Below, piece by piece: positions 1,088 through 11,174 of a DNA stretch of 24,648 bases (position 1 is its first letter; every line of letters starts with the position of its first letter). The stretch is from a virus. Taxonomy: Duplodnaviria; Heunggongvirae; Uroviricota; Caudoviricetes. The notes under the pieces were generated by a model that did no database searches, was not told where the DNA came from, and was given only the letters and a program-made list of their open reading frames with translations. The stretch is from positions 1 to 24,648 of the IMG/VR virus record IMGVR_UViG_2684622670_000019; one strand, 5' to 3'. A program made the translations under genes and the position numbers.

Positions 1088-1450
1088 ATGTTAAAGCTAT
1101 TTGCAAAGTACACCTCGATTGGTGTGCTAAACACACTTATACACTGGGTGGTTTTTGGTGTTTGTATCTATGCAGCGCATACAAATCAGGCTCTGGCAAA
1201 CTTCGCAGGTTTCGTTGTGGCAGTGAGCTTTAGCTTCTTCGCGAATGCAAAATTCACATTCAAAGCATCGGCTACAACGATGCGCTACATGTTATACGTC
1301 ACGTTCATGGGAGCGCTTAGCGCTGCTGTTGGATGGGCTGCTGATAGATGCGCACTTCCCCCAATCATTACTCTTATTACCTCCTCCGCCATCAGCCTGG
1401 TGTGCGGTTTCGTCTATTCAAGGTTAATTGTCTTTAGGGGTGCGAAATGA
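1088..1450 (+). CDS. gtrA: GtrA, bactoprenol-linked glucose translocase (flippase), O-antigen conversion
   Basis: 120-aa small multi-TM protein ([24 protein letters not shown]...) matching GtrA of Shigella/Salmonella serotype-converting phages from memory; first gene of a three-gene operon with ATGA overlap to gtrB. Confidence 0.85.
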
Positions 1451-2370
1451 AGATATCTCTTGTAGTTCCTGTCTTCAATGAAGAAGAGGCGATACCAATT
1501 TTTTATAAAACGGTACGTGAATTCGAAGAGTTGAAGCCATATGAAGTAGAAATTGTTTTTATAAATGATGGTAGCAAAGACGCTACTGAGTCAATTATTA
1601 ATGCTCTGGCTGTTTCAGATCCTCTAGTTATTCCTTTGTCATTTACTCGCAACTTTGGTAAAGAACCAGCATTGTTTGCAGGGTTAGACCATGCTACTGG
1701 AGATGCCGTGATTCCAATTGATGTTGACCTGCAAGACCCGATTGAGGTTATTCCTCATCTTATTGAAAACTGGCAGGCTGGCGCCGATATGGTGCTGGCA
1801 AAGCGTTCAGACCGCTCTACAGATGGGCGTCTGAAGCGCAAGACAGCAGAGTGGTTTTATAAGCTTCACAATAAGATCAGCAATCCGAAGCTCGAGGAAA
1901 ATGTTGGCGATTTCCGGCTGATGTCCCGCGATGTAGTGGATAATATTAAGCTTATGCCAGAACGCAATCTTTTCATGAAAGGCATTCTTAGTTGGGTTGG
2001 TGGGTCTACAGATGTAGTTGAGTATGTCCGTGCTGAGCGGATAGCCGGCAGCACGAAATTCAATGGGTGGAAATTATGGAACCTCGCACTTGAAGGTATA
2101 ACAAGTTTCTCCACTTTCCCTCTGCGTATGTGGACTTATATTGGGCTATTCGTAGCTGGAATGGCTCTTTTATATGGCACATGGATGATTATCGACACCT
2201 TGGTGTTTGGAAATCCGGTTCGCGGTTACCCATCACTTATGGTGTCCATTCTCTTCTTAGGCGGAATTCAGCTTATAGGAATTGGCGTACTTGGTGAATA
2301 TATAGGAAGAATTTACATAGAGTGCAAAGCTAGACCTAGATTTATTATCAAGAGAATGAAAAATGAATAA
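1447..2370 (+). CDS. gtrB: GtrB, bactoprenol glucosyltransferase (GT2 family)
   Basis: 307 aa; N-terminal GT2 signature ([10 protein letters not shown]...INDGSKD...IDVDLQDP) and C-terminal TM helices; translationally coupled to gtrA and gtrC. Confidence 0.88.
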
Positions 2371-3793
2371 AACAATCAAAATCAACTTCTACATACTATT
2401 TATTATTTTGTTTTTTATTATAACATGTAATATTTACTACTATGATGATGTATTTAGATCGTATTGGGGATATTATGGTTGGTCTGAAGATGGAAGGCCT
2501 TTTGCAGATTTATTCTATAAATTATTTATTTTCTTTAGATCTGAAAGCATACCAGATATTTACCCGCTACCACTAATTTTAACGTCTGTGCTTCTTGTTA
2601 TATCACTAACAAATGCATTGCAAAATATACTATCAAAAGATGGGGTTATAGTTAATATAACTTTTGCAATATTTATGCTTAACCCTTTTCTTTTGTCTAA
2701 TATGCTATTTAGATATGATGGTGCATTTATGATTTTATCTATTGCACTTTCGGCTATTCCGTTCATTTTTACAAAAAGTAGAACATTCGCCATATCATCA
2801 CTACTGTGCCTAACAATATCGCTTGGATTGTATCAAGCCTCAATAAATGTGTACATTGGGCTTGCATCAGTAGTGGTTGCAATGGAAGCATTGAAAGGGG
2901 AAAAGTTTACATCAATAGCCAGCAGAGTGCTATTATCTGTTACATGCGTAGTCTCTTCATATGTTATATACTCAAAATTAATACTTGAATCATTATCTTT
3001 AAATAATAACTTCTCGAAATATGCTCAAATAGTTGAATTAAATAAAGGAGGAGTCATCAATGTTTATGAGAATATAATTAACGCAGTTAAAAAAATTGAT
3101 GTTGCTCTTCATAGTGGTATTGGAACACCTCTTTATATATTTTTATCAATAATAGCCATATCATCTGTGTGTGTTGCCATTAAACGAAAACAATTTCAGT
3201 TACTATTTTTTATTGCTATATCTATTTTGGGTTGTTTCTTTTCTTCTTTTGGTGTGTCTGTCTTTGGGAAATCGCCAGTATTTGTGTCAAGGATATTTAT
3301 CGGATTTGGTGTTTTTATAATGGCAGTTCCTTTGATTGGCTCAGCACTTCTTAATTGGAAACTTAATTACTTACTATCATTATTCATTGCAATTCCTATG
3401 CTGTCCATCTTTTTTGCCACCATTAATGCCTCAAGAGAGGAATTTAAATTCCAAAACAATTTATCACTTCAAATGATTAATGATATTAATCATAGCAAAG
3501 CTAAATATCTCGACTTTGTTGTTATTGATGGCTATGCGAAGAACTCTTCTGTTGCAAGCATAAATAAGAAAATATTTCCCGTAATATCTGATATATTGCC
3601 TCCTGTCTTTACAAATAGATATGATGGTGGGGTTTTCACATTGATGAGAAATGGACTAAAAGATGTTGTTAGTGCTGAGTCATCAGCTGCAGACAACGCG
3701 GTATCAATATCAGATGATGGAAATCTAATTTCTGACAATAATATATATAGCATTCATGCGACCAAAGATATTATTGTAATAAAATTAAAATAA
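2363..3793 (+). CDS. gtrC: GtrC-type serotype-specific O-antigen glucosyltransferase (polytopic membrane protein)
   Basis: 476 aa, many TM segments, extremely AT-rich; third position of the gtr operon, overlapping the gtrB stop by 8 nt. Family members are highly divergent, so the call is by position and topology. Confidence 0.7.
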
Positions 3794-3857: not shown

Positions 3858-5921
3858 CTAAGAAAAAATCCAATTACCATACATTCCAGTTATTTCACTA
3901 TACATGCCTTCTTTATTTTTTAATTTAATCCAAGCGCCGAATTCAGTGGTGGCTACTTGCGTTACTTCTGAAGAGTTACTTACAAACCTTATATTTGCTA
4001 CACCTATTGCTCTACTTGGTGATGAGATTGTCATAGCTCTTATTATTTTTAACTCTCTGAAATCACCAGTGCTACTTGCGATTATATCAATATCATTAGT
4101 GCTATGGTTAAATATAATGGTGTTATTTAACAGCTTTGTATTTTGAAAAGATGTTATTGTGGCAATCCCTCCAATAAATCCTCTTATCTGGGCCGGGCCA
4201 GTATCTCCACTATCATAGGCTAATGATGTGGTTATATTATCTTCCTCCTTTCCTATATGTATATCAATAAAGTACTCTTTTAAACTAATACCAGCCAAAA
4301 CTAAAAATGTTGATATAGTCGATGTACATTTTTTAATAACCAGATTCTTAAAATTTCGAGATAACCCGATGCTTATTGGATCAATAGTTCTAGGTAATAA
4401 TCTGATTATTTTATCCCCACCTGCTATAGTAGTTTCATCAACAATTTCACCTATTTCCACAAAAAGGCGGTCATCCCCCAGCATTTCAAAAACACAAAAG
4501 TCTAAAGGAGACGTCTTAAATACCACTCTATCAATTAAGATTTTCCCTATACCATTTCCCATAACTCTAGTAGCTGTCACCCCTCTGTTAGTCACATTCG
4601 TTAGTGTTGTATTCCCCGAGATGATTACATCAGCTACAAGACTGTCAGGGAAAATATTAAGTTCCACACCAGTATACGCACCATTGATGTATGGGTTTGA
4701 GATTTCACAATTAATCAACCGAGGGACAGTGTGTCCAGGCACACTTTCGTCTGCCTCTGGTTCAATATCTATGCCAGATTTCGGCATAGCACCTGTAACA
4801 CCTCCGTAGTCACCAATATTATAAATCTCAGGATTAACTATTATTATATTTTCACCTGACGTTAGGCTTATACCGTTACGCCTGCATTGTTTGACGATCG
4901 GTTTTTCTATATAGATATTTTCTGGAACCGTGCCATCGGTAGTCCCCCACTTCATGCCTATATATATTCCGTCGCCAAACATGTTGGTATACAGTCCACC
5001 AATAATACGAATGTTAGAGGATTGAAGTATTGTAAGCCCCCATCCATGTTCTCCTTCGGATGTGTTTGTTAACCGATCACCTTCCAGTACAGGATTATAA
5101 ATATTTACATTTTTAACACCGTTTGCTATGTAAATGATATGGCTTTGTGGCCTGTTTTGATTTGCTAGTTTTAATGCCCCATCCTTCTCAAATCTTATAG
5201 TGCTATTATCTACGCATCTTAACACAGATTTAAAAGCATCATTTCCAGGGGAAAAAGGGTCTTCATTCACAGCCATCAAGCCTTCAAATGATTTATCTAT
5301 AATGAATTCTGCACCAATAGATGCTGCGGATTCATACGCTTTTTGTAGTGTTTGTGCGTCATTGCAAAAATCAGAAGCATAAATAGAGTTGGTTTTCTTT
5401 AATTCAAATATCCTACCATTTCTGCTCCTGATAATTAATATTCCATCTGGGGTGAGCGTGGGGGTGGATGATTCATAAACATATCGACCATGAATCATTA
5501 CATGATTAAATATATCTGGGACATCCTCTTGCTCTATATTAATAGCAACATATATAAGTTTATTACTTAACTCCCCCCTTAACTGATCAGGATCATACTT
5601 CAGCACATTAGGAAAATAGAACTGCTGCGCACCATACGCATCATATACAGCCATAGAATGGCCTTGCACAGTTACGAATTTAGCAATCTGTCCGTTATAT
5701 ACCGGATATCCAGCAGCGTTAATGATTATTGGTTGCGAAACAGGAACGTGAGAACCGTCTTCATTCTCCACATAAACCTGAATCTGGTTTTCAGGATTTA
5801 CTGGATCAGTGTCAATTTTACCGATATAAATTTTGCCATTGGCAACCGCTTTAAAAGAACGCGCCATAGTGAATAGTTGCGAAGGCATACTCACTACAAC
5901 ATTGGCTGTAATATCTGTCAT
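3858..5921 (-). CDS. Tailspike protein: P22-type N-terminal head-binding domain fused to a beta-helix receptor-binding (depolymerase) domain
   Basis: 687 aa; N-terminal ~110 aa ([11 protein letters not shown]...[32 protein letters not shown]...VLKYDPDQ) closely matches the P22/Sf6/HK620 tailspike head-binding domain from memory; the remainder is a repetitive beta-helix-like sequence. SD GGAG upstream of ATG 5921. Confidence 0.85.
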
Positions 5922-6053: not shown

Positions 6054-6311
6054 ATGATGTACAGCAAATACGATGAGGCGCAGTTCCACTTGAGGCTTAC
6101 GCACGAGTTGCACGCTAAGATTAAGCAGCGTGCAAAAATGAATAACAGGTCTATCAATTCCGAAATTGTGGCTACGATGGAAGAATCTCTCTCCAAACCA
6201 TCACCTGTAAGCGGGTATCGTGATGAAGAAGAGAGACTGGCCTCATTAATCTCGGAACGAGTAAAAGAAGTTGCGGCTGAAATTCTAAGGAAAGAAAAAA
6301 CCCGCGATTAA
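6054..6311 (+). CDS. Mnt-like ribbon-helix-helix repressor
   Basis: 85 aa from ATG 6054 (MMYSKYDEAQFHLRLTHELHAKIKQRAKMNNRSINSEIVATMEESLSKPSPVSGYRDEEERLA...) aligns with P22 Mnt (..FNFRMPMEVREKLKFRAEANGRSMNSELLQIVQDALSKPSPVTGYRNDAERLA..). The longer ORF-track start at 5877 is rejected. Confidence 0.75.
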   Translation: MMYSKYDEAQFHLRLTHELHAKIKQRAKMNNRSINSEIVATMEESLSKPSPVSGYRDEEERLASLISERVKEVAAEILRKEKTRD

Positions 6312-6326
6312 GCGGGTTTAGTTTTC
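6295..6326. terminator. Bidirectional intrinsic terminator between convergent mnt-like and KilAC antirepressor genes
   Basis: 7-bp stem aacccgc (6299-6305) / gcgggtt (6312-6318), flanked by AAAAAA (6295-6300) and TAGTTTT (6320-6325). Confidence 0.5.
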
Positions 6327-6337
6327 ATTATAAAATG

Positions 6338-7063
6338 TTACGCCACATTTGAGCCATGTAGCAGGTGTTGTAGTGCTTTAACGCCTTCAGAATTGTAGCG
6401 GAACGCCTCTACCTGTTTGCTGGAATGCGCCGATTTATCCAGGAAGAACTTCCCGTACTGCTCAGTTTTGAGGTTGTTTGCGTTAGCAATGCGACCAATC
6501 TTGTTGGCCGTTACTCCAAGCTGCTCTGCAACCTCCCCTGCTGAGTAGTAATGCTCTTCTATTGCCGGAAGAGGTATTGCATTAAAACCAACAAGCGGGT
6601 TGATTATACTTGCTGCCGCTGTCTGCTTTGCCTCCGGCGCAAGATTTGGCATCAGATCGAACAGATTGGTAACAGCTTCAACCGTCATTTTCAGTGTTCG
6701 CGCTTGACGATACTCAATAAGTCCACTCGCTGATTTACCGCTTTTAATGTGTGCTTCCTGCATACTTTCAAGTTTGTCTACAAGTGTTCGGCGAACTGCT
6801 TTAGATTCGCGAGCAGCAACACGAAGCGCCTGCTTGATAGTCATGGAGATAACATCAATGTCAGCCCCGTTTTTCCGACCTACACTTTTTGTGTAGGTCT
6901 CGCCCTCCAATTCATCCTCAATTTTCTCGATGAATTTGTTGTTACGTACTGATGGCTCTCCACATAACTTGCGAGCTTCATTAACCATCATCAGAAGGCT
7001 TTGGCTGTCAATGGTTTTATCCGTGACAACGGATCCGATGTTTGCTACATTCTTCAAAGTCAT
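6338..7063 (-). CDS. Antirepressor-like protein with C-terminal KilAC/ANT-type domain
   Basis: 242 aa from ATG 7063 with SD AAGGA 7 nt upstream; C-terminal region (YSAGEVAEQLGVTANKIGRIANANNL...) resembles the phage antirepressor KilAC domain; sits in the ant position of a P22 immI-like operon. Confidence 0.6.
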   Translation of the reverse strand: MTLKNVANIGSVVTDKTIDSQSLLMMVNEARKLCGEPSVRNNKFIEKIEDELEGETYTKSVGRKNGADIDVISMTIKQALRVAARESKAVRRTLVDKLESMQEAHIKSGKSASGLIEYRQARTLKMTVEAVTNLFDLMPNLAPEAKQTAAASIINPLVGFNAIPLPAIEEHYYSAGEVAEQLGVTANKIGRIANANNLKTEQYGKFFLDKSAHSSKQVEAFRYNSEGVKALQHLLHGSNVA

Positions 7064-7100
7064 TAGGCATTCCTTATGTGGTAGTAAGGGTGTGACATAG

Positions 7101-7132
7101 GCCGCCAGCAGCACACTGGCGGTTTTCTTTTT
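7101..7132 (+). terminator. Intrinsic terminator in antisense orientation between the two antirepressor genes
   Basis: Stem ccgccag (7102-7108) / ctggcgg (7116-7122), 7-nt loop, then TTTTCTTTTT (7123-7132) on the plus strand although both flanking genes are on the minus strand. Confidence 0.55.
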
Positions 7133-7151
7133 GCGCCGTCCGGCGCACCAA

Positions 7152-7778
7152 TCAATGAATCCATTCCTCGCCGCGCAGTTTTGTCAGCATTGGCTGAGCG
7201 TTCTTTACGACAAAATTGTTGGTATCAAGATTCTTCATTTCACGAAGAAGTGATTTCTTGGTTTCTTCTGACATATAGCGAGTCTCATATGCAATATCGT
7301 AAATTCTTCCTGAAAGCTCAGAACCAATTTGCTTCATTCCTGGGTAGATGTGTTTGCACATTTGTTGACTCTTCTCCATCCACAATTGTAAGTAGCAGAG
7401 ATTAACCAGTTCTTCGTCAGTAAACTGTTTTGCAATCGGTGAGCATTCTGCCTGCCGATCCAAAATATCCAGCACCCAGCGGCGGAACTCTTTTGCTACA
7501 GGAGTGCGAGCAAACATCGCGATTAGGTGGGCACCGCGTAGTGAGAAAACTCGCACTTTTTTGCGATAATTTCCTGAGGTACTCACTTCGAGTACCTGAG
7601 TCATTCCGGCGCTAAACTCATCGCCATACTTGTTATAAATCATTGTTACTGCACGACTATTTGCGTATTTAAGTGCAGATGCAATATTAGATGATGTAAA
7701 CCAAACACCATGCATATCACGGGTGGGCACCAACTCAACTCCGTGGAAGTTGTAATCTGATTTTGCTACAATATTCAT
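7152..7778 (-). CDS. Antirepressor-like protein with N-terminal Bro-N/AntA-type domain
   Basis: About 208 aa from ATG 7778 with SD AAGGAA upstream; N-terminal half (NFHGVELVPTRDMHGVWFTSSNIASALKY...LIAMFARTPVAKEFRRWVLDIL) fits the Bro-N/AntA fold pattern; immediately downstream of the Arc-like gene. The TTG start at 7883 from the ORF track is rejected. Confidence 0.6.
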   Translation of the reverse strand: MNIVAKSDYNFHGVELVPTRDMHGVWFTSSNIASALKYANSRAVTMIYNKYGDEFSAGMTQVLEVSTSGNYRKKVRVFSLRGAHLIAMFARTPVAKEFRRWVLDILDRQAECSPIAKQFTDEELVNLCYLQLWMEKSQQMCKHIYPGMKQIGSELSGRIYDIAYETRYMSEETKKSLLREMKNLDTNNFVVKNAQPMLTKLRGEEWIH

Positions 7779-7851
7779 GTTAGTTTCCTTGCATACGGTT
7801 ACTGACATAGAGGCCCGGTTTGTGTTCGCGCACTGCCGGGCTTCGCTATTT

Positions 7852-8025
7852 TTATTGGATGACAACATCGCCCTTTGCCTCAAGTTTCATCAATAACTCC
7901 ATTCGATAAGCTATCTCTGCCTGAATTGACCTATGGCATCTTTTTGCTGATTCGCGGATATGTGAATCAACCTTTTCTGTAAAACGAACCTGACGCGGCT
8001 TGATGGAAGATATCTTTTCAGTCAT
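7852..8025 (-). CDS. Arc-like ribbon-helix-helix repressor (57 aa, below the ORF-track cutoff)
   Basis: MTEKISSIKPRQVRFTEKVDSHIRESAKRCHRSIQAEIAYRMELLMKLEAKGDVVIQ aligns with P22 Arc (PQFNLRWPREVLDLVRKVAEENGRSVNSEIYQRVMESFKKEGRIGA); SD AGGAG 7 nt upstream of ATG 8025; first gene of the minus-strand operon. Confidence 0.7.
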   Translation of the reverse strand: MTEKISSIKPRQVRFTEKVDSHIRESAKRCHRSIQAEIAYRMELLMKLEAKGDVVIQ

Positions 8026-8074: not shown

Positions 8075-8103
8075 ATTATTCACTCACACTCAGTATGAGT
8101 CAA
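8075..8103 (-). promoter_or_regulatory. Sigma70-type promoter for the arc-ant operon (Pant analogue) with embedded candidate operator
   Basis: On the minus strand TTGACT (8103-8098), 17-nt spacer, AATAAT (8080-8075); the spacer contains the inverted repeat ACTCA-gta-TGAGT (8088-8100) and a further ACTCA copy at 8082-8086. Confidence 0.5.
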
Positions 8104-8124: not shown

Positions 8125-8766
8125 ATGAATTTTGACGATCAATTCCCATCAAGAGTATCTCTGGCAAGACAGTCCAGGGGTATGACGCAGGCGCAGTTGT
8201 CAAAATTAGCTGGTGTTGTTCAACGTCAAATAGCTGCATACGAGGGTGGTGAGGCTAAACCACGGCTTCGTGTATTGCAGGCATTAGCCAACGCATTAGG
8301 TACTACGGCTGAGTGGTTAGCTCTGGGTGAAGGTCAGGGTCCGGGAACAAAAAACGTCATGCCTGACGTTCTGGTAAAGCAAATACCAATCCTCAAACTA
8401 GATGAAGTTATGCATTACCTAAACACAGGTGAACATTCATCGTCTAGATTTCATCCGGCAATATACAATGTTGGTGACTCTGCATTTGCATTGACTATTG
8501 AAGGTGAAGCTATGACTACAAGTTCAGGCATTAGCTTTCCCAGAGGATCAGTTGTCACGTTCAGCCCTCTAGTAAAAGCTAAAAGCAAAGATTATGTAAT
8601 AGCATCATTGGATAAAGAGCAAATATTGAGCTTCAAACAGGTTTACATTGGTGAAATAGAGACAAACCTAGTATCCCTAAACCCAATGTATCCTAATATT
8701 CTTGTTAGAAATGAAGATGTTAGTATTTTGGCAACCGCAGTTTACCTTGAAATCCCGTTGCTTTGA
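8125..8766 (+). CDS. Lambda-CI-fold repressor (N-terminal XRE HTH, C-terminal S24 LexA-like domain) with catalytic Ser replaced by Ala; predicted non-cleavable
   Basis: 213 aa; HTH (MTQAQLSKLAGVVQRQIAAYEGGEAKP); C-terminal domain aligns with the lambda CI C-terminal domain (VGDSAFALTIEGEAM versus ASDSAFWLEVEGNSM; SFKQV versus TFKKL; LNPMYP versus LNPQYP). Divergent from the arc-like operon, in the P22 mnt position. Confidence 0.75.
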   Translation: MNFDDQFPSRVSLARQSRGMTQAQLSKLAGVVQRQIAAYEGGEAKPRLRVLQALANALGTTAEWLALGEGQGPGTKNVMPDVLVKQIPILKLDEVMHYLNTGEHSSSRFHPAIYNVGDSAFALTIEGEAMTTSSGISFPRGSVVTFSPLVKAKSKDYVIASLDKEQILSFKQVYIGEIETNLVSLNPMYPNILVRNEDVSILATAVYLEIPLL

Positions 8767-8826: not shown

Positions 8827-9054
8827 GTGAAGCGATGGTTCCTCATAATTACTGTTTTCGCGATCATTTACACTATTTTCCCTGCATTAAAAGCACCAAT
8901 GCAAATAATTTCACTAGCAATAATTGCGATTGGTGCTTTCATTGCAGTAGCCGTACTTGTGTTTAAGGTTTTAAAGTTTTTAGTTTGGCTATCAAAAGAT
9001 GATGGATGCAAAGTTCATCAAGAAAAAGAAGGCAAAATAACCAAAGTTGACTAA
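8827..9054 (+). CDS. Small two-TM membrane protein; candidate superinfection-exclusion or abortive-infection effector
   Basis: 75 aa; strong SD TAAGGAGG 5 nt upstream of GTG 8827; two hydrophobic helices (FLIITVFAIIYTIF, IISLAIIAIGAFIAVAVLVF) and a charged C-terminus; AT-rich; directly downstream of and co-oriented with the CI-like repressor; no recognisable homologue. Confidence 0.55.
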   Translation: MKRWFLIITVFAIIYTIFPALKAPMQIISLAIIAIGAFIAVAVLVFKVLKFLVWLSKDDGCKVHQEKEGKITKVD

Positions 9055-11174
9055 CTGTCACTAGCGAGCCATGTAATAATCCCCGTGCGGGCAATGGTTT
9101 TTGCTTCATCTGTTGATAAGGTTTTCTCCCATCTCTTAAATGCCCCAGATTGCATCAGTTTCCTTTCTATTACGCGTCTCACTTCTGCTCTGTCTACTGG
9201 TGCGTTTTGCAGGCGAAATAGCATTGATTTAAACTCAGGAGAAGACAGTAGAGCATCAGCAGCCTTTATCCTGCTTGTTTTCCCTGACATCAATGCGGAC
9301 GTTATCACCCCTGTTGCACCTACACCAGGAAGACCAGATAAGCTTGTAATACCTTCCGCCGCAGCAGCTTTTGAGGCTATTCCATAAATTTTTGCGAGAC
9401 TACCCTTTTCTTTCAGAAAGTTATTAACTTGCTGATCCACAAGGCTACTAGCATACTGCTTACCAGTATTGAGTCTATTCATAGACTTAGCTGCTTGATA
9501 AATCGTATCAAGGCGCTTTGATGCATCTGTGCCAATAGCATCACGGAGAGCCTTCATATTGGCCCCATTGCGTGACATTCCGTTATACCATTTTACAAAT
9601 CCATCAACTCCTAATTGCTGGCCAGGTGATTTGGCATAGCTGGTAAATGCTTTATTCATTGAGGTGAGCGCAACTTCCTGCCGCATATCCTTTGGAATTG
9701 ACTTCATTAATTGCCTAAAGTCACCACCGTTTCCTTTTGCCATATTAACAACAGCACTTTCAACTTTTGGAATTGCTGATTGCTGAAGTTTTCTACCCAA
9801 GACGGTTACAGCATCATCTTCAATGGATTTTCGTTTTTTTACCAACTCCTTACCAAGCGTCCATAACTCCCCTGCGCCATATTTTTCTGCGACAGCCTGT
9901 TGGTCATCTGTTATAGCTGCATATAACTTTTTAAGAACACCTGTTTCTTCATCCTTGAATGGACCAGAGCCTTTGCCAATAGCTTGCCCCACCTGCTTTC
10001 TAGCGAGATCTAAACGCCCATACGTTGGCAAGGTGTTTGGATCAAGTCGGTTCAATGTCCGCTTCATTATTGGAGATAATTCATCAATTCCACCTATGTC
10101 ATCAGCAAAATCCTCTAAAAAATTCAATGTATTAGTTGCCTCAATACGGTCTCTTACTGGAACCTTTTCGGCAATTTTGTTGTAGATGTTATCTGACTGA
10201 TTTTGTAATGATGAAATGGTTTTATCAAAATTATCTGCAAGCCTGTCAGAAACCAGTTGCTTATCAAGGCTTCCCCCAAATGAAGTTATCATTTCATCAG
10301 CTTTTCTTCCTAATTCAGTAATAAAACGCTTATGCGCCTCACTAATCTCTGTTCCAGGGAGACTTGCCACTGCATTATCAAGAGCCCTGACAGCGGGATT
10401 ATTAGAGATCATGCCTGGAGTGGCATAATTTTCCAGTTCTAGCTCACGAATAGCATTTATCGCGTTAAAATCAGGATTAACTTCATCGGCGAAATCTTGA
10501 ATAGCTCGTTGCCCGCCGATAAATTTATTGTCCATTGCGCCAGCAGCTTTCTTTAACGTTGCTTTAGATGATTTACTACCCATCCCTACGGATGAGCGAT
10601 AAATATCTCCGGCACTATTTTTAATTTTTCCTGCAATCTTCCCAAGCGCTGGGCCAACAATCTCTGCTACAGGGCCAGCCACAGCGCCAATAGCAGCGCC
10701 GGAAGCAACATCGCTATTTGTTCCATTGGCTACAATAGCCCCTTCTCCAGCACCAAGCCCTGCGGCGGCAGCCAGCCTTGCCGCCCCTTTCGGAACCTGA
10801 GAAATAATCCCACCACCACTAACAAATGGTGCTGCTTGTCCAACGAACTCACCAACATCTTGTGCGGTTGATGGTTTTGCCGCTAACTTCTGCTGTAGAG
10901 ACTGAATTGCGGCTTGCTCTTCTGGTGTCATATCCTGAAACAGGCCAACACCTTTACCAACATCCATCAATCCACTGAGAACGCCATACATAAAACGGTC
11001 GAAACCGTTGGCTTTATTAACAACATTTTCCTGTCTGGAATTTTCCTCTGGTGAAACCAAAGGTGATTGCTGCTGTTCTGGTTGGGCATCAAGCACAAAA
11101 CCATCAGGAAGCTGTGAGTTATCAGGCTGATTATCGAGAACAAAGCCTTCGGGTAAACCTACATCGGTTGCCAT
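9051..11174 (-). CDS. Ejection (E) protein, P22 gp16-like
   Basis: 707 aa, Gly/Ala-rich; last gene of the gp7-gp20-gp16 ejection-protein block by conserved P22-like gene order. Confidence 0.7.

Follow-up and report, generated by a model that had tools for sequence, protein, structure and literature searches.

A candidate sar-type antisense RNA cassette over the start of a second antirepressor gene in a P22-like ant moron

The window, by which we mean the whole stretch of 24,648 nt that was analysed, comes from a P22-like (Lederbergvirus) phage or prophage; in this region its identity is 98% with Escherichia phage JEP4 and 98-99% with prophages of several E. coli strains, HS among them. It carries an 'ant moron' between the homologue of gene 16 (9051-11174, minus strand) and the tailspike gene (3858-5921, minus strand), and ant morons of this kind are known from P22-like phages, in which they lie between the homologues of genes 16 and 9 (PMC2629481). 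The order along the antirepressor operon is arc-like gene, sar-1, ant1, sar-2 and ant2 (Table 1), sar-1 and sar-2 being two elements on the opposite strand. The product of the gene in the arc position has a weak ParD_like match in Pfam, under the curated cut-off, and from its sequence is possibly a ribbon-helix-helix protein. The ant2 product matches the anti-repressor family PHROG 1726 with E = 2e-100, the ant2 DNA is similar to P1 ant1/ant2, and the protein is homologous to P1 Ant2 from residue 17 (TIDSQ) on, exactly past its leader. A preliminary description of this DNA had named the gene a KilAC antirepressor; the assignment as an antirepressor holds, whereas KilAC does not, no Pfam family, ANT/KilAC (PF03374) included, having matched ant2 at E <= 0.01.

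The repressor gene that diverges from the arc-position gene encodes an HTH domain and a peptidase S24 domain, LexA/C2-like, and this repressor may replace Mnt as the repressor of the operon, linking it to SOS. The site TTGACT-17-AATAAT faces the antirepressor operon and is, by its sequence, a candidate for the convergent partner of the sar-1 and sar-2 promoters. On the far side of ant2, a perfect bidirectional terminator (6298-6319; AAACCCGC...GCGGGTTT), with T-runs on both strands, separates this gene from the Arc/Mnt-family gene. Three plus-strand ORFs of 120, 307 and 476 aa (1088-3793) adjoin the tailspike gene, and by their sizes and position they may be counterparts of the P22 O-antigen conversion genes gtrA, gtrB and gtrC. 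In E. coli HS (NC_009800; locus L007, 783-2584) ant2 is split by an IS3-family element and annotated as a pseudogene, and the sar-2 cassette upstream of it is intact. Phage JEP4 (MT740315) and E. coli NZ_OZ040950 likewise have an intact cassette.

Table 1. Features of the ant moron and of the sar-2 element (positions in the window).
Feature	Position	Strand	Basis or remark
Arc/Mnt-family gene, convergent with ant2	6054-6311	+	
ant2, 241-aa antirepressor-family protein, target of sar-2	6338-7063	-	PHROG 1726
ant2 leader, 16 codons (MTLKNVANIGSVVTDK)	7016-7063	-	antisense promoter lies within it, on the plus strand
-35 hexamer GTGACA of the antisense promoter	7023-7028	+	direct reading, consensus scan
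Extended -10, TGc TACATT	7043-7051	+	hexamer TACATT at 7046-7051
Predicted transcription start, A7058	7058	+	inferred; 7 nt past the -10
Predicted antisense RNA sar-2, 72-75 nt	7058-7132	+	two-hairpin fold
Predicted 5' stem-loop with the complements of start codon and Shine-Dalgarno	7059-7096	+	fold prediction
ant2 start codon (7063-7061) and Shine-Dalgarno AAGGA (7075-7071)	7061-7075	-	both inside the predicted antisense RNA
Intrinsic terminator, 10-bp stem, 7-nt loop, tail TTTTCTTTTT	7099-7132	+	consensus scan
ant1, antirepressor, Bro-N and P22_AR_C domains	7152-7778	-	Pfam, PHROG
sar-1, between arc-position gene and ant1	7764-7856	+	alignment to the P22 sar strand
arc-position gene, 57 aa, first of the operon	7852-8025	-	PHROG 10182, function unknown
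Candidate operon promoter TTGACT-17-AATAAT	8075-8103	-	10/12 consensus matches only
S24/HTH repressor gene, inside the ant moron	8125-8766	+	

Within the first codons of ant2, on the opposite strand, we found a sigma-70 extended -10 promoter by sequence, defined here by TGn, a hexamer whose second base is A and whose sixth is T, and a -35 at 17 +/- 1 nt. Its -35 overlaps ant2 codons 12-14 (gtT GTC ACg) and its extended -10 overlaps codons 5-7 (AAT GTA GCA), with a 17-nt spacer between the hexamers (7029-7045) that ends in TGC (7043-7045); in the consensus scan it has 9/12 consensus matches, with the TG. Downstream on the same strand, CAT at 7061-7063 is the complement of the ant2 start codon and TCCTT at 7071-7075 that of its Shine-Dalgarno. 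The hairpin that follows (7099-7125) consists of the arms A7099-G7108 and C7116-T7125 around the loop CAGCACA, with a tail to 7132, and has the form of an intrinsic terminator, a GC-rich stem-loop with a U-run directly after it; with 10 pairs, 6 of them G-C, it ranks first among the terminator-like sites. On the minus strand it is followed by CCTATGTCACACCC, with no U-run, so that it should terminate plus-strand transcription only, yet it is set between two minus-strand genes, the ant1 stop codon lying 20 nt past its T-run. The preliminary description had read the promoter and the two complements at exactly these positions and had expected an RNA of about 70 nt, for which we predict 72-75 nt; the strong plus-strand terminator that it had placed between two minus-strand genes is borne out by the top-ranked hairpin and its T-run.

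The predicted 75-nt RNA folds with -25.1 kcal/mol (z = -2.8), and its coding content is limited to AUG-UGG-UAG. A plus-strand ORF at 6930-7100 was considered and set aside, as it begins ahead of the promoter, where the sequence varies from one target family to another. In the ant2 sense mRNA (7064-7096, minus strand), the Shine-Dalgarno AAGGA can, as read from the sequence, join a 5-bp hairpin (CCUUA...UAAGG), and translation of ant2 may be intrinsically weak or coupled. Promoter-like sites between 5500 and 9000 are at chance level (7 against 7.0 +/- 3.1 in shuffles), so that the promoter match alone is not significant, and terminator-like sites number 10 against 2.9 +/- 1.5 in shuffles; the significance of sar-2 comes from conservation across the family and not from the single window. 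No RNA is annotated at the site in RefSeq/GenBank records, no family of Rfam 15 matches sar-2, the whole window is without a match at gathering score, and at E <= 10 the region 6800-7400 gave only chance-level matches (SgrS at 13 bits, NsiR4).

The other element of the operon, sar-1, aligns with the sar strand of P22 from promoter through terminator. Its extended -10 TGcTACAAT (7764-7772) is followed by ATT, by CAT (7776-7778, the ant1 start) and then by GUUAGU...ACUGAC; the predicted start is G7779, directly after the ant1 start codon, and the T-run of a long terminator hairpin (7810-7818 with 7836-7844) reaches into the stop codon of the arc-position gene. The fold of sar-1 reaches -33.2 kcal/mol (z = -5.2). 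The Rfam sar model (RF00262, gathering 43 bits) scores P22 sar at 97.8 bits and leaves sar-2 unmatched, but it also misses sar-1 (7779-7856; best match symR, 24.9 bits, under gathering score) and is therefore narrow. By position and by sequence comparison, the homologue of P22 sar is sar-1, and sar-2 is a second, distinct cassette. The preliminary description had taken the element at ant2 as the mirror of P22 sar, which is borne out for the geometry and the conserved unit, the positional homologue being sar-1 and not the element it had flagged. Among the matches listed, 35 of 135 unique contexts contain both elements, with sar-1 at ~640 nt from the hairpin of sar-2.

To survey the family, the collection was scanned twice, each scan anchored on a part of the cassette (the hairpin or the leader). 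The hairpin pattern, CCGCCA-N6-12-TGGCGGTTTT-N0-1-CTTTTTGC (hairpin and T-run, with no constraint on a promoter), was found in at least 119 viral contigs, giving at least 86 unique sequences, which are linked by descent and recombination and do not count as independent events. Among the matches listed, 85 of 86 unique sequences have a sigma-70 promoter within 90 nt upstream of the hairpin and on its strand, compared with 0-2/86 in three control windows further upstream and 1/86 on the opposite strand under the same criteria; a minus-strand gene starts between promoter and hairpin in all 86, CAT being 9 nt away from the end of the -10 in 65 of them, 24 nt away in 14 and 6 nt away in 5, and the stop codon of the upstream gene lies 34 or 50 nt from the start of the hairpin in most loci. 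The predicted RNA covers the start codon or the Shine-Dalgarno of the gene in which it lies in every family member among the matches listed. A plus-strand gene does lie upstream of the element in the window (6054-6311), and the hairpin might end a long antisense transcript coming from elsewhere, for example by read-through from this gene, with the promoter-like site being incidental; we regard this as very unlikely, given that the bidirectional terminator at 6298-6319 closes that gene and that the promoter is kept where there is no convergent gene, as in SPN3UB and in myovirus-like prophages.

In a one-genome-per-species scan with the hairpin pattern we found 13 cassette-bearing loci, 11 of them in Enterobacterales (Citrobacter, Pantoea, Rahnella, Lonsdalea, Erwinia, Buttiauxella, Raoultella and Serratia). 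The remaining two come from one assembly of Chryseobacterium sp. 18061 (Bacteroidota; L131 and L157, on contigs 1 and 2), where the cassettes are complete and of enterobacterial type, one of the ORF6N class and one of the P1-Ant-like class; they may reflect contamination or chimeric contigs and not the true host range. The pattern also matched 17 ordinary terminators in other phyla, with the promoter in 0 of the 16 that could be evaluated. The exact sar-2 type occurs in 78 of 5426 complete E. coli genomes. In Erwinia phage Midgardsormr38 (L008, ~2680-2720) the hairpin and T-run fall inside the annotated 3' end of the antirepressor ORF18, and the annotated gap between ORF18 and ORF19 is only 18 nt; either the stop of ORF18 has been annotated wrongly or the terminator there runs into coding sequence.

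The second scan, with the leader-anchored pattern GTGACA-N14-TGCTAMAKT-N6-AGTCAT, left the terminator free. A GC-rich hairpin with a T-run was found at the same place in 84/84 unique downstream sequences among the matches listed, 69 of them with hairpins of the CCGCCA type and 15 with different stems that still pair, including GCCGATAG/CTATCGGC, ACCAGCAG/CTGCTGGT and ACCGTCAG/CTGACGGT; tails of the TTTTCTATTT type, which the terminator-finding script missed, were judged from RNAfold output and alignment. When the 15 terminator types were aligned, 95.3% of cells were paired as against 18-54% in slid controls, and compensatory change was seen in 6 of the 10 stem pairs, with 0/500 shuffles as good. 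Furthermore, the G-U pairs at the base of the stem form on the plus strand only and become C-A mismatches in the sense RNA. Together with the one-sided T-run, these G-U pairs point to the plus strand as the one under selection.

The predicted RNAs of 26 class representatives measure 65-81 nt and would each consist of a 5' hairpin and the terminator. The 5' domain, which would pair with the 5'UTR of the target, can be divided at 80% identity into at least 11 classes, and these are shuffled among the target families. RNAalifold on 19 class representatives recovered the terminator alone, the 5' domains having diverged too far for alignment, and the largest 5'UTR class (22 unique sequences) showed little variation and no clean covariation for the predicted 5' hairpin. 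The variability of the 5' domain between classes is what one would expect of a specificity determinant, and it can be considered that promoter and terminator are real, with the main effect being transcriptional interference, or an action of the RNA elsewhere, for example on host mRNAs or on the ant2 mRNA of superinfecting phages. The sar-2 promoter does face the candidate operon promoter (8103-8075), and a terminator with a U-tail resembles those of Hfq-dependent sRNAs. At the same time, coverage of the start codon or Shine-Dalgarno of the gene in which the element lies, in every member among the matches listed is what selection for pairing with the ribosome-binding site predicts, and interference alone needs no terminator at a fixed place with covariation, so we consider this explanation unlikely.

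The genes that carry the cassette at their start fall into five families by N-terminal domain (86 unique sequences among the matches listed): P1-Ant2-like proteins with no Pfam family, which include that of the window (41), Phage_pRha (24), ORF6N (14), Bro-N (5) and KilA-N (2). Targets were clustered on residues 16-95, full-length clustering having merged all of them because their C-terminal modules are shared. The promoter lies in a leader of 14-16 codons, outside the Pfam domains, and the Rha, ORF6N and KilA-N domains begin at residues 15-25, after leaders of the same pattern as that of ant2. In the Rha class a methionine stands directly after the leader (...VVTK-MSSREIA, ...YVT-MSSREIA), which in these sequences looks like the original start codon kept after a graft. 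The Bro-N class has a different leader (MNSIIKHFEF...) and, in the same place, a promoter of its own that is unrelated (TTGACT-16-GATAAT).

Aligned by their extended -10, 57 unique promoter regions among the matches listed have an invariant -35 core GACA (57/57) at a fixed spacing of 17 nt, a spacer with ~0 bits, and an A 7 nt past the -10 in 57/57. The family consensus of the -10 is TGnTA[C/A/T/G]A[T/G]T, position 3 of the hexamer taking all four bases. In the leader, the codon before GTC encodes 11 amino acids with T as its third base in 54/54 (among the matches listed), the T doubling as position 6 of the -35. Such patterns agree with selection on the promoter, at the nucleotide level, and not on the peptide. 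The peptide pattern is itself conserved (T-x-x-N-V-A-N-x-x-x-V-V-T), the hairpin would form in the sense RNA too, and there are mosaic joints at ~7002 and ~7098; one could thus imagine that no RNA is made, that the leader has a peptide function, and that the hairpin is a recombination linker or an element for processing or stability of the sense mRNA between ant1 and ant2. We find this very unlikely, since it leaves the invariant third-position T of a codon for 11 amino acids without a reason, the information profile is that of a sigma-70 promoter and not of a peptide, the Bro-N class places a different promoter within a different peptide at the same position, and the T-run is one-sided, with the G-U pairs of the stem base turning into mismatches in the sense RNA.

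We therefore favour, with a probability of about 0.75, the reading of 7023-7132 on the plus strand as a small gene whose product is a cis-encoded antisense RNA working like P22 sar. The sequence elements, the conservation of the unit, the selection on the promoter at the nucleotide level and the covariation of the terminator are direct observations, from which we infer production of the sar-2 RNA, its start site and repression of ant2. The extended -10 sigma-70 promoter inside codons 5-14 of ant2, the second antirepressor gene of the operon, would drive transcription from about A7058, against the direction of the operon; the RNA would cross the ant2 start codon and Shine-Dalgarno and end at the Rho-independent terminator just past the ant1 stop codon. 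Being perfectly complementary to the ant2 initiation region, this RNA of 72-75 nt would pair with the operon mRNA, block ribosome binding and probably expose the duplex to RNase III, such that synthesis of Ant2 would be held down and that of Ant1 would be unaffected.

The closest comparison is with P22, in which Psar (GTGTTA-17-TGcTATACT) lies in the first ant codons and the sar terminator overlaps the end of arc. Both promoters lie in the first codons of their target, in sar-2 as GTGACA-17-TGcTACATT, and the TGcTATACT of Psar aligns with the extended -10 of sar-2; P22 sar starts 7 nt past the -10, as predicted for sar-2, and its 68-69 nt compare with the predicted 72-75 nt, for which a fold in two hairpins, as in sar, is predicted. 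The P22 terminator stands at the end of the upstream gene, and that of sar-2 likewise abuts the upstream stop codon, works in the antisense direction only by its sequence, and shows covariation. Both elements are cis-antisense to the ribosome-binding region of an antirepressor gene in an ant moron, and this layout, with the promoter in the first codons, is kept in 85/86 family members among the matches listed. On the other hand, the RNA bodies cannot be aligned (the promoter region alone aligns) and the terminators differ in sequence. P22 sar lies between arc and ant and targets a P22-type Ant, whereas sar-2 lies between two antirepressor genes and targets a P1-Ant2-like protein, covering, unlike P22 sar, the start codon as well as the Shine-Dalgarno. 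In P22, antisense pairing of sar with ant blocks translation and the duplex is cleaved, and in P1/P7 the c4 RNA controls the icd-ant1/ant2 antirepressor at the RNA level (both summarised in PMC12197685). Like sar-2, c4 is an RNA repressor of an antirepressor, one whose body is homologous to ant2; it differs in being encoded on the same strand, upstream, and in being processed and acting in trans on short sites, whereas sar-2 is encoded on the opposite strand over its target. The Rfam C4 family has no match in the window, and P1 Ant2, unlike ant2, is without the promoter-carrying leader. Short cis-antisense RNAs of ~70-77 nt also include IS10 RNA-OUT and lambda OOP, whose targets and sequences are unrelated to sar-2. 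RNA-OUT arises from a promoter within the 5' end of the transposase gene, whose ribosome-binding site it covers. The phage RNA OOP has an intrinsic terminator, and the sequence it overlaps is not a ribosome-binding site but the 3' end of cII.

As far as sequence comparison can tell, promoter and terminator are kept as a unit across otherwise unrelated target genes, and the cassette, made of a promoter leader, a variable 5'UTR and a constant terminator, is a mobile module of Enterobacterales phages and prophages. Homology with other prophages and phages breaks at ~7002 and ~7098, just outside the cassette: one E. coli group shares 7002-7150 only, and SPN3UB shares sequence from 7098 rightward, which fits recombination at the cassette ends. 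We hypothesise, tentatively and with the odds rather against it, that the cassette is a self-contained, portable antisense silencer, grafted by recombination at its constant ends onto at least five unrelated antirepressor-type domains, in which the leader of 14-16 codons serves chiefly to carry the promoter on the other strand, the hypervariable segment recognises the target and sets the specificity of an RNA-based immunity, and the terminator is nearly constant.

Antirepressors decide the silence of prophages, and P22 sar has stood nearly alone as a cis-antisense controller of one; in a 2025 review, sar, c4 and 24B_1 are the sole entries on antirepressor control (PMC12197685). We found no description of the sar-2 cassette family in the literature searched, and published Salmonella prophage transcriptomes (PMC7067206) could not be linked to sar-2 because the 8-20 kb stretch of ST64B has no ant cassette. 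A sar-type antisense RNA is of a known kind; what is new is the sar-2 family, its spread, its tandem use and the portable design with a promoter in the leader. Judging by its presence in at least 119 viral contigs and in prophages of at least eight Enterobacterales genera, the sar-like design appears to be common, and in the window it occurs twice in one operon. According to the paper on the epsilon-34 genome, control of ant morons of the HS-1 type must differ from that in P22 (PMC2629481), and sar-2 offers an answer to this question. In addition, the family illustrates cleanly how a promoter on one strand can shape the leader of a coding sequence on the other. Were the cassette indeed a portable silencer, the antirepressor mRNA of a superinfecting relative would be silenced in trans by the prophage where the two match, and not where the incoming phage is of another class, and the operon of the window would carry two immunity specificities, those of sar-1 and sar-2.
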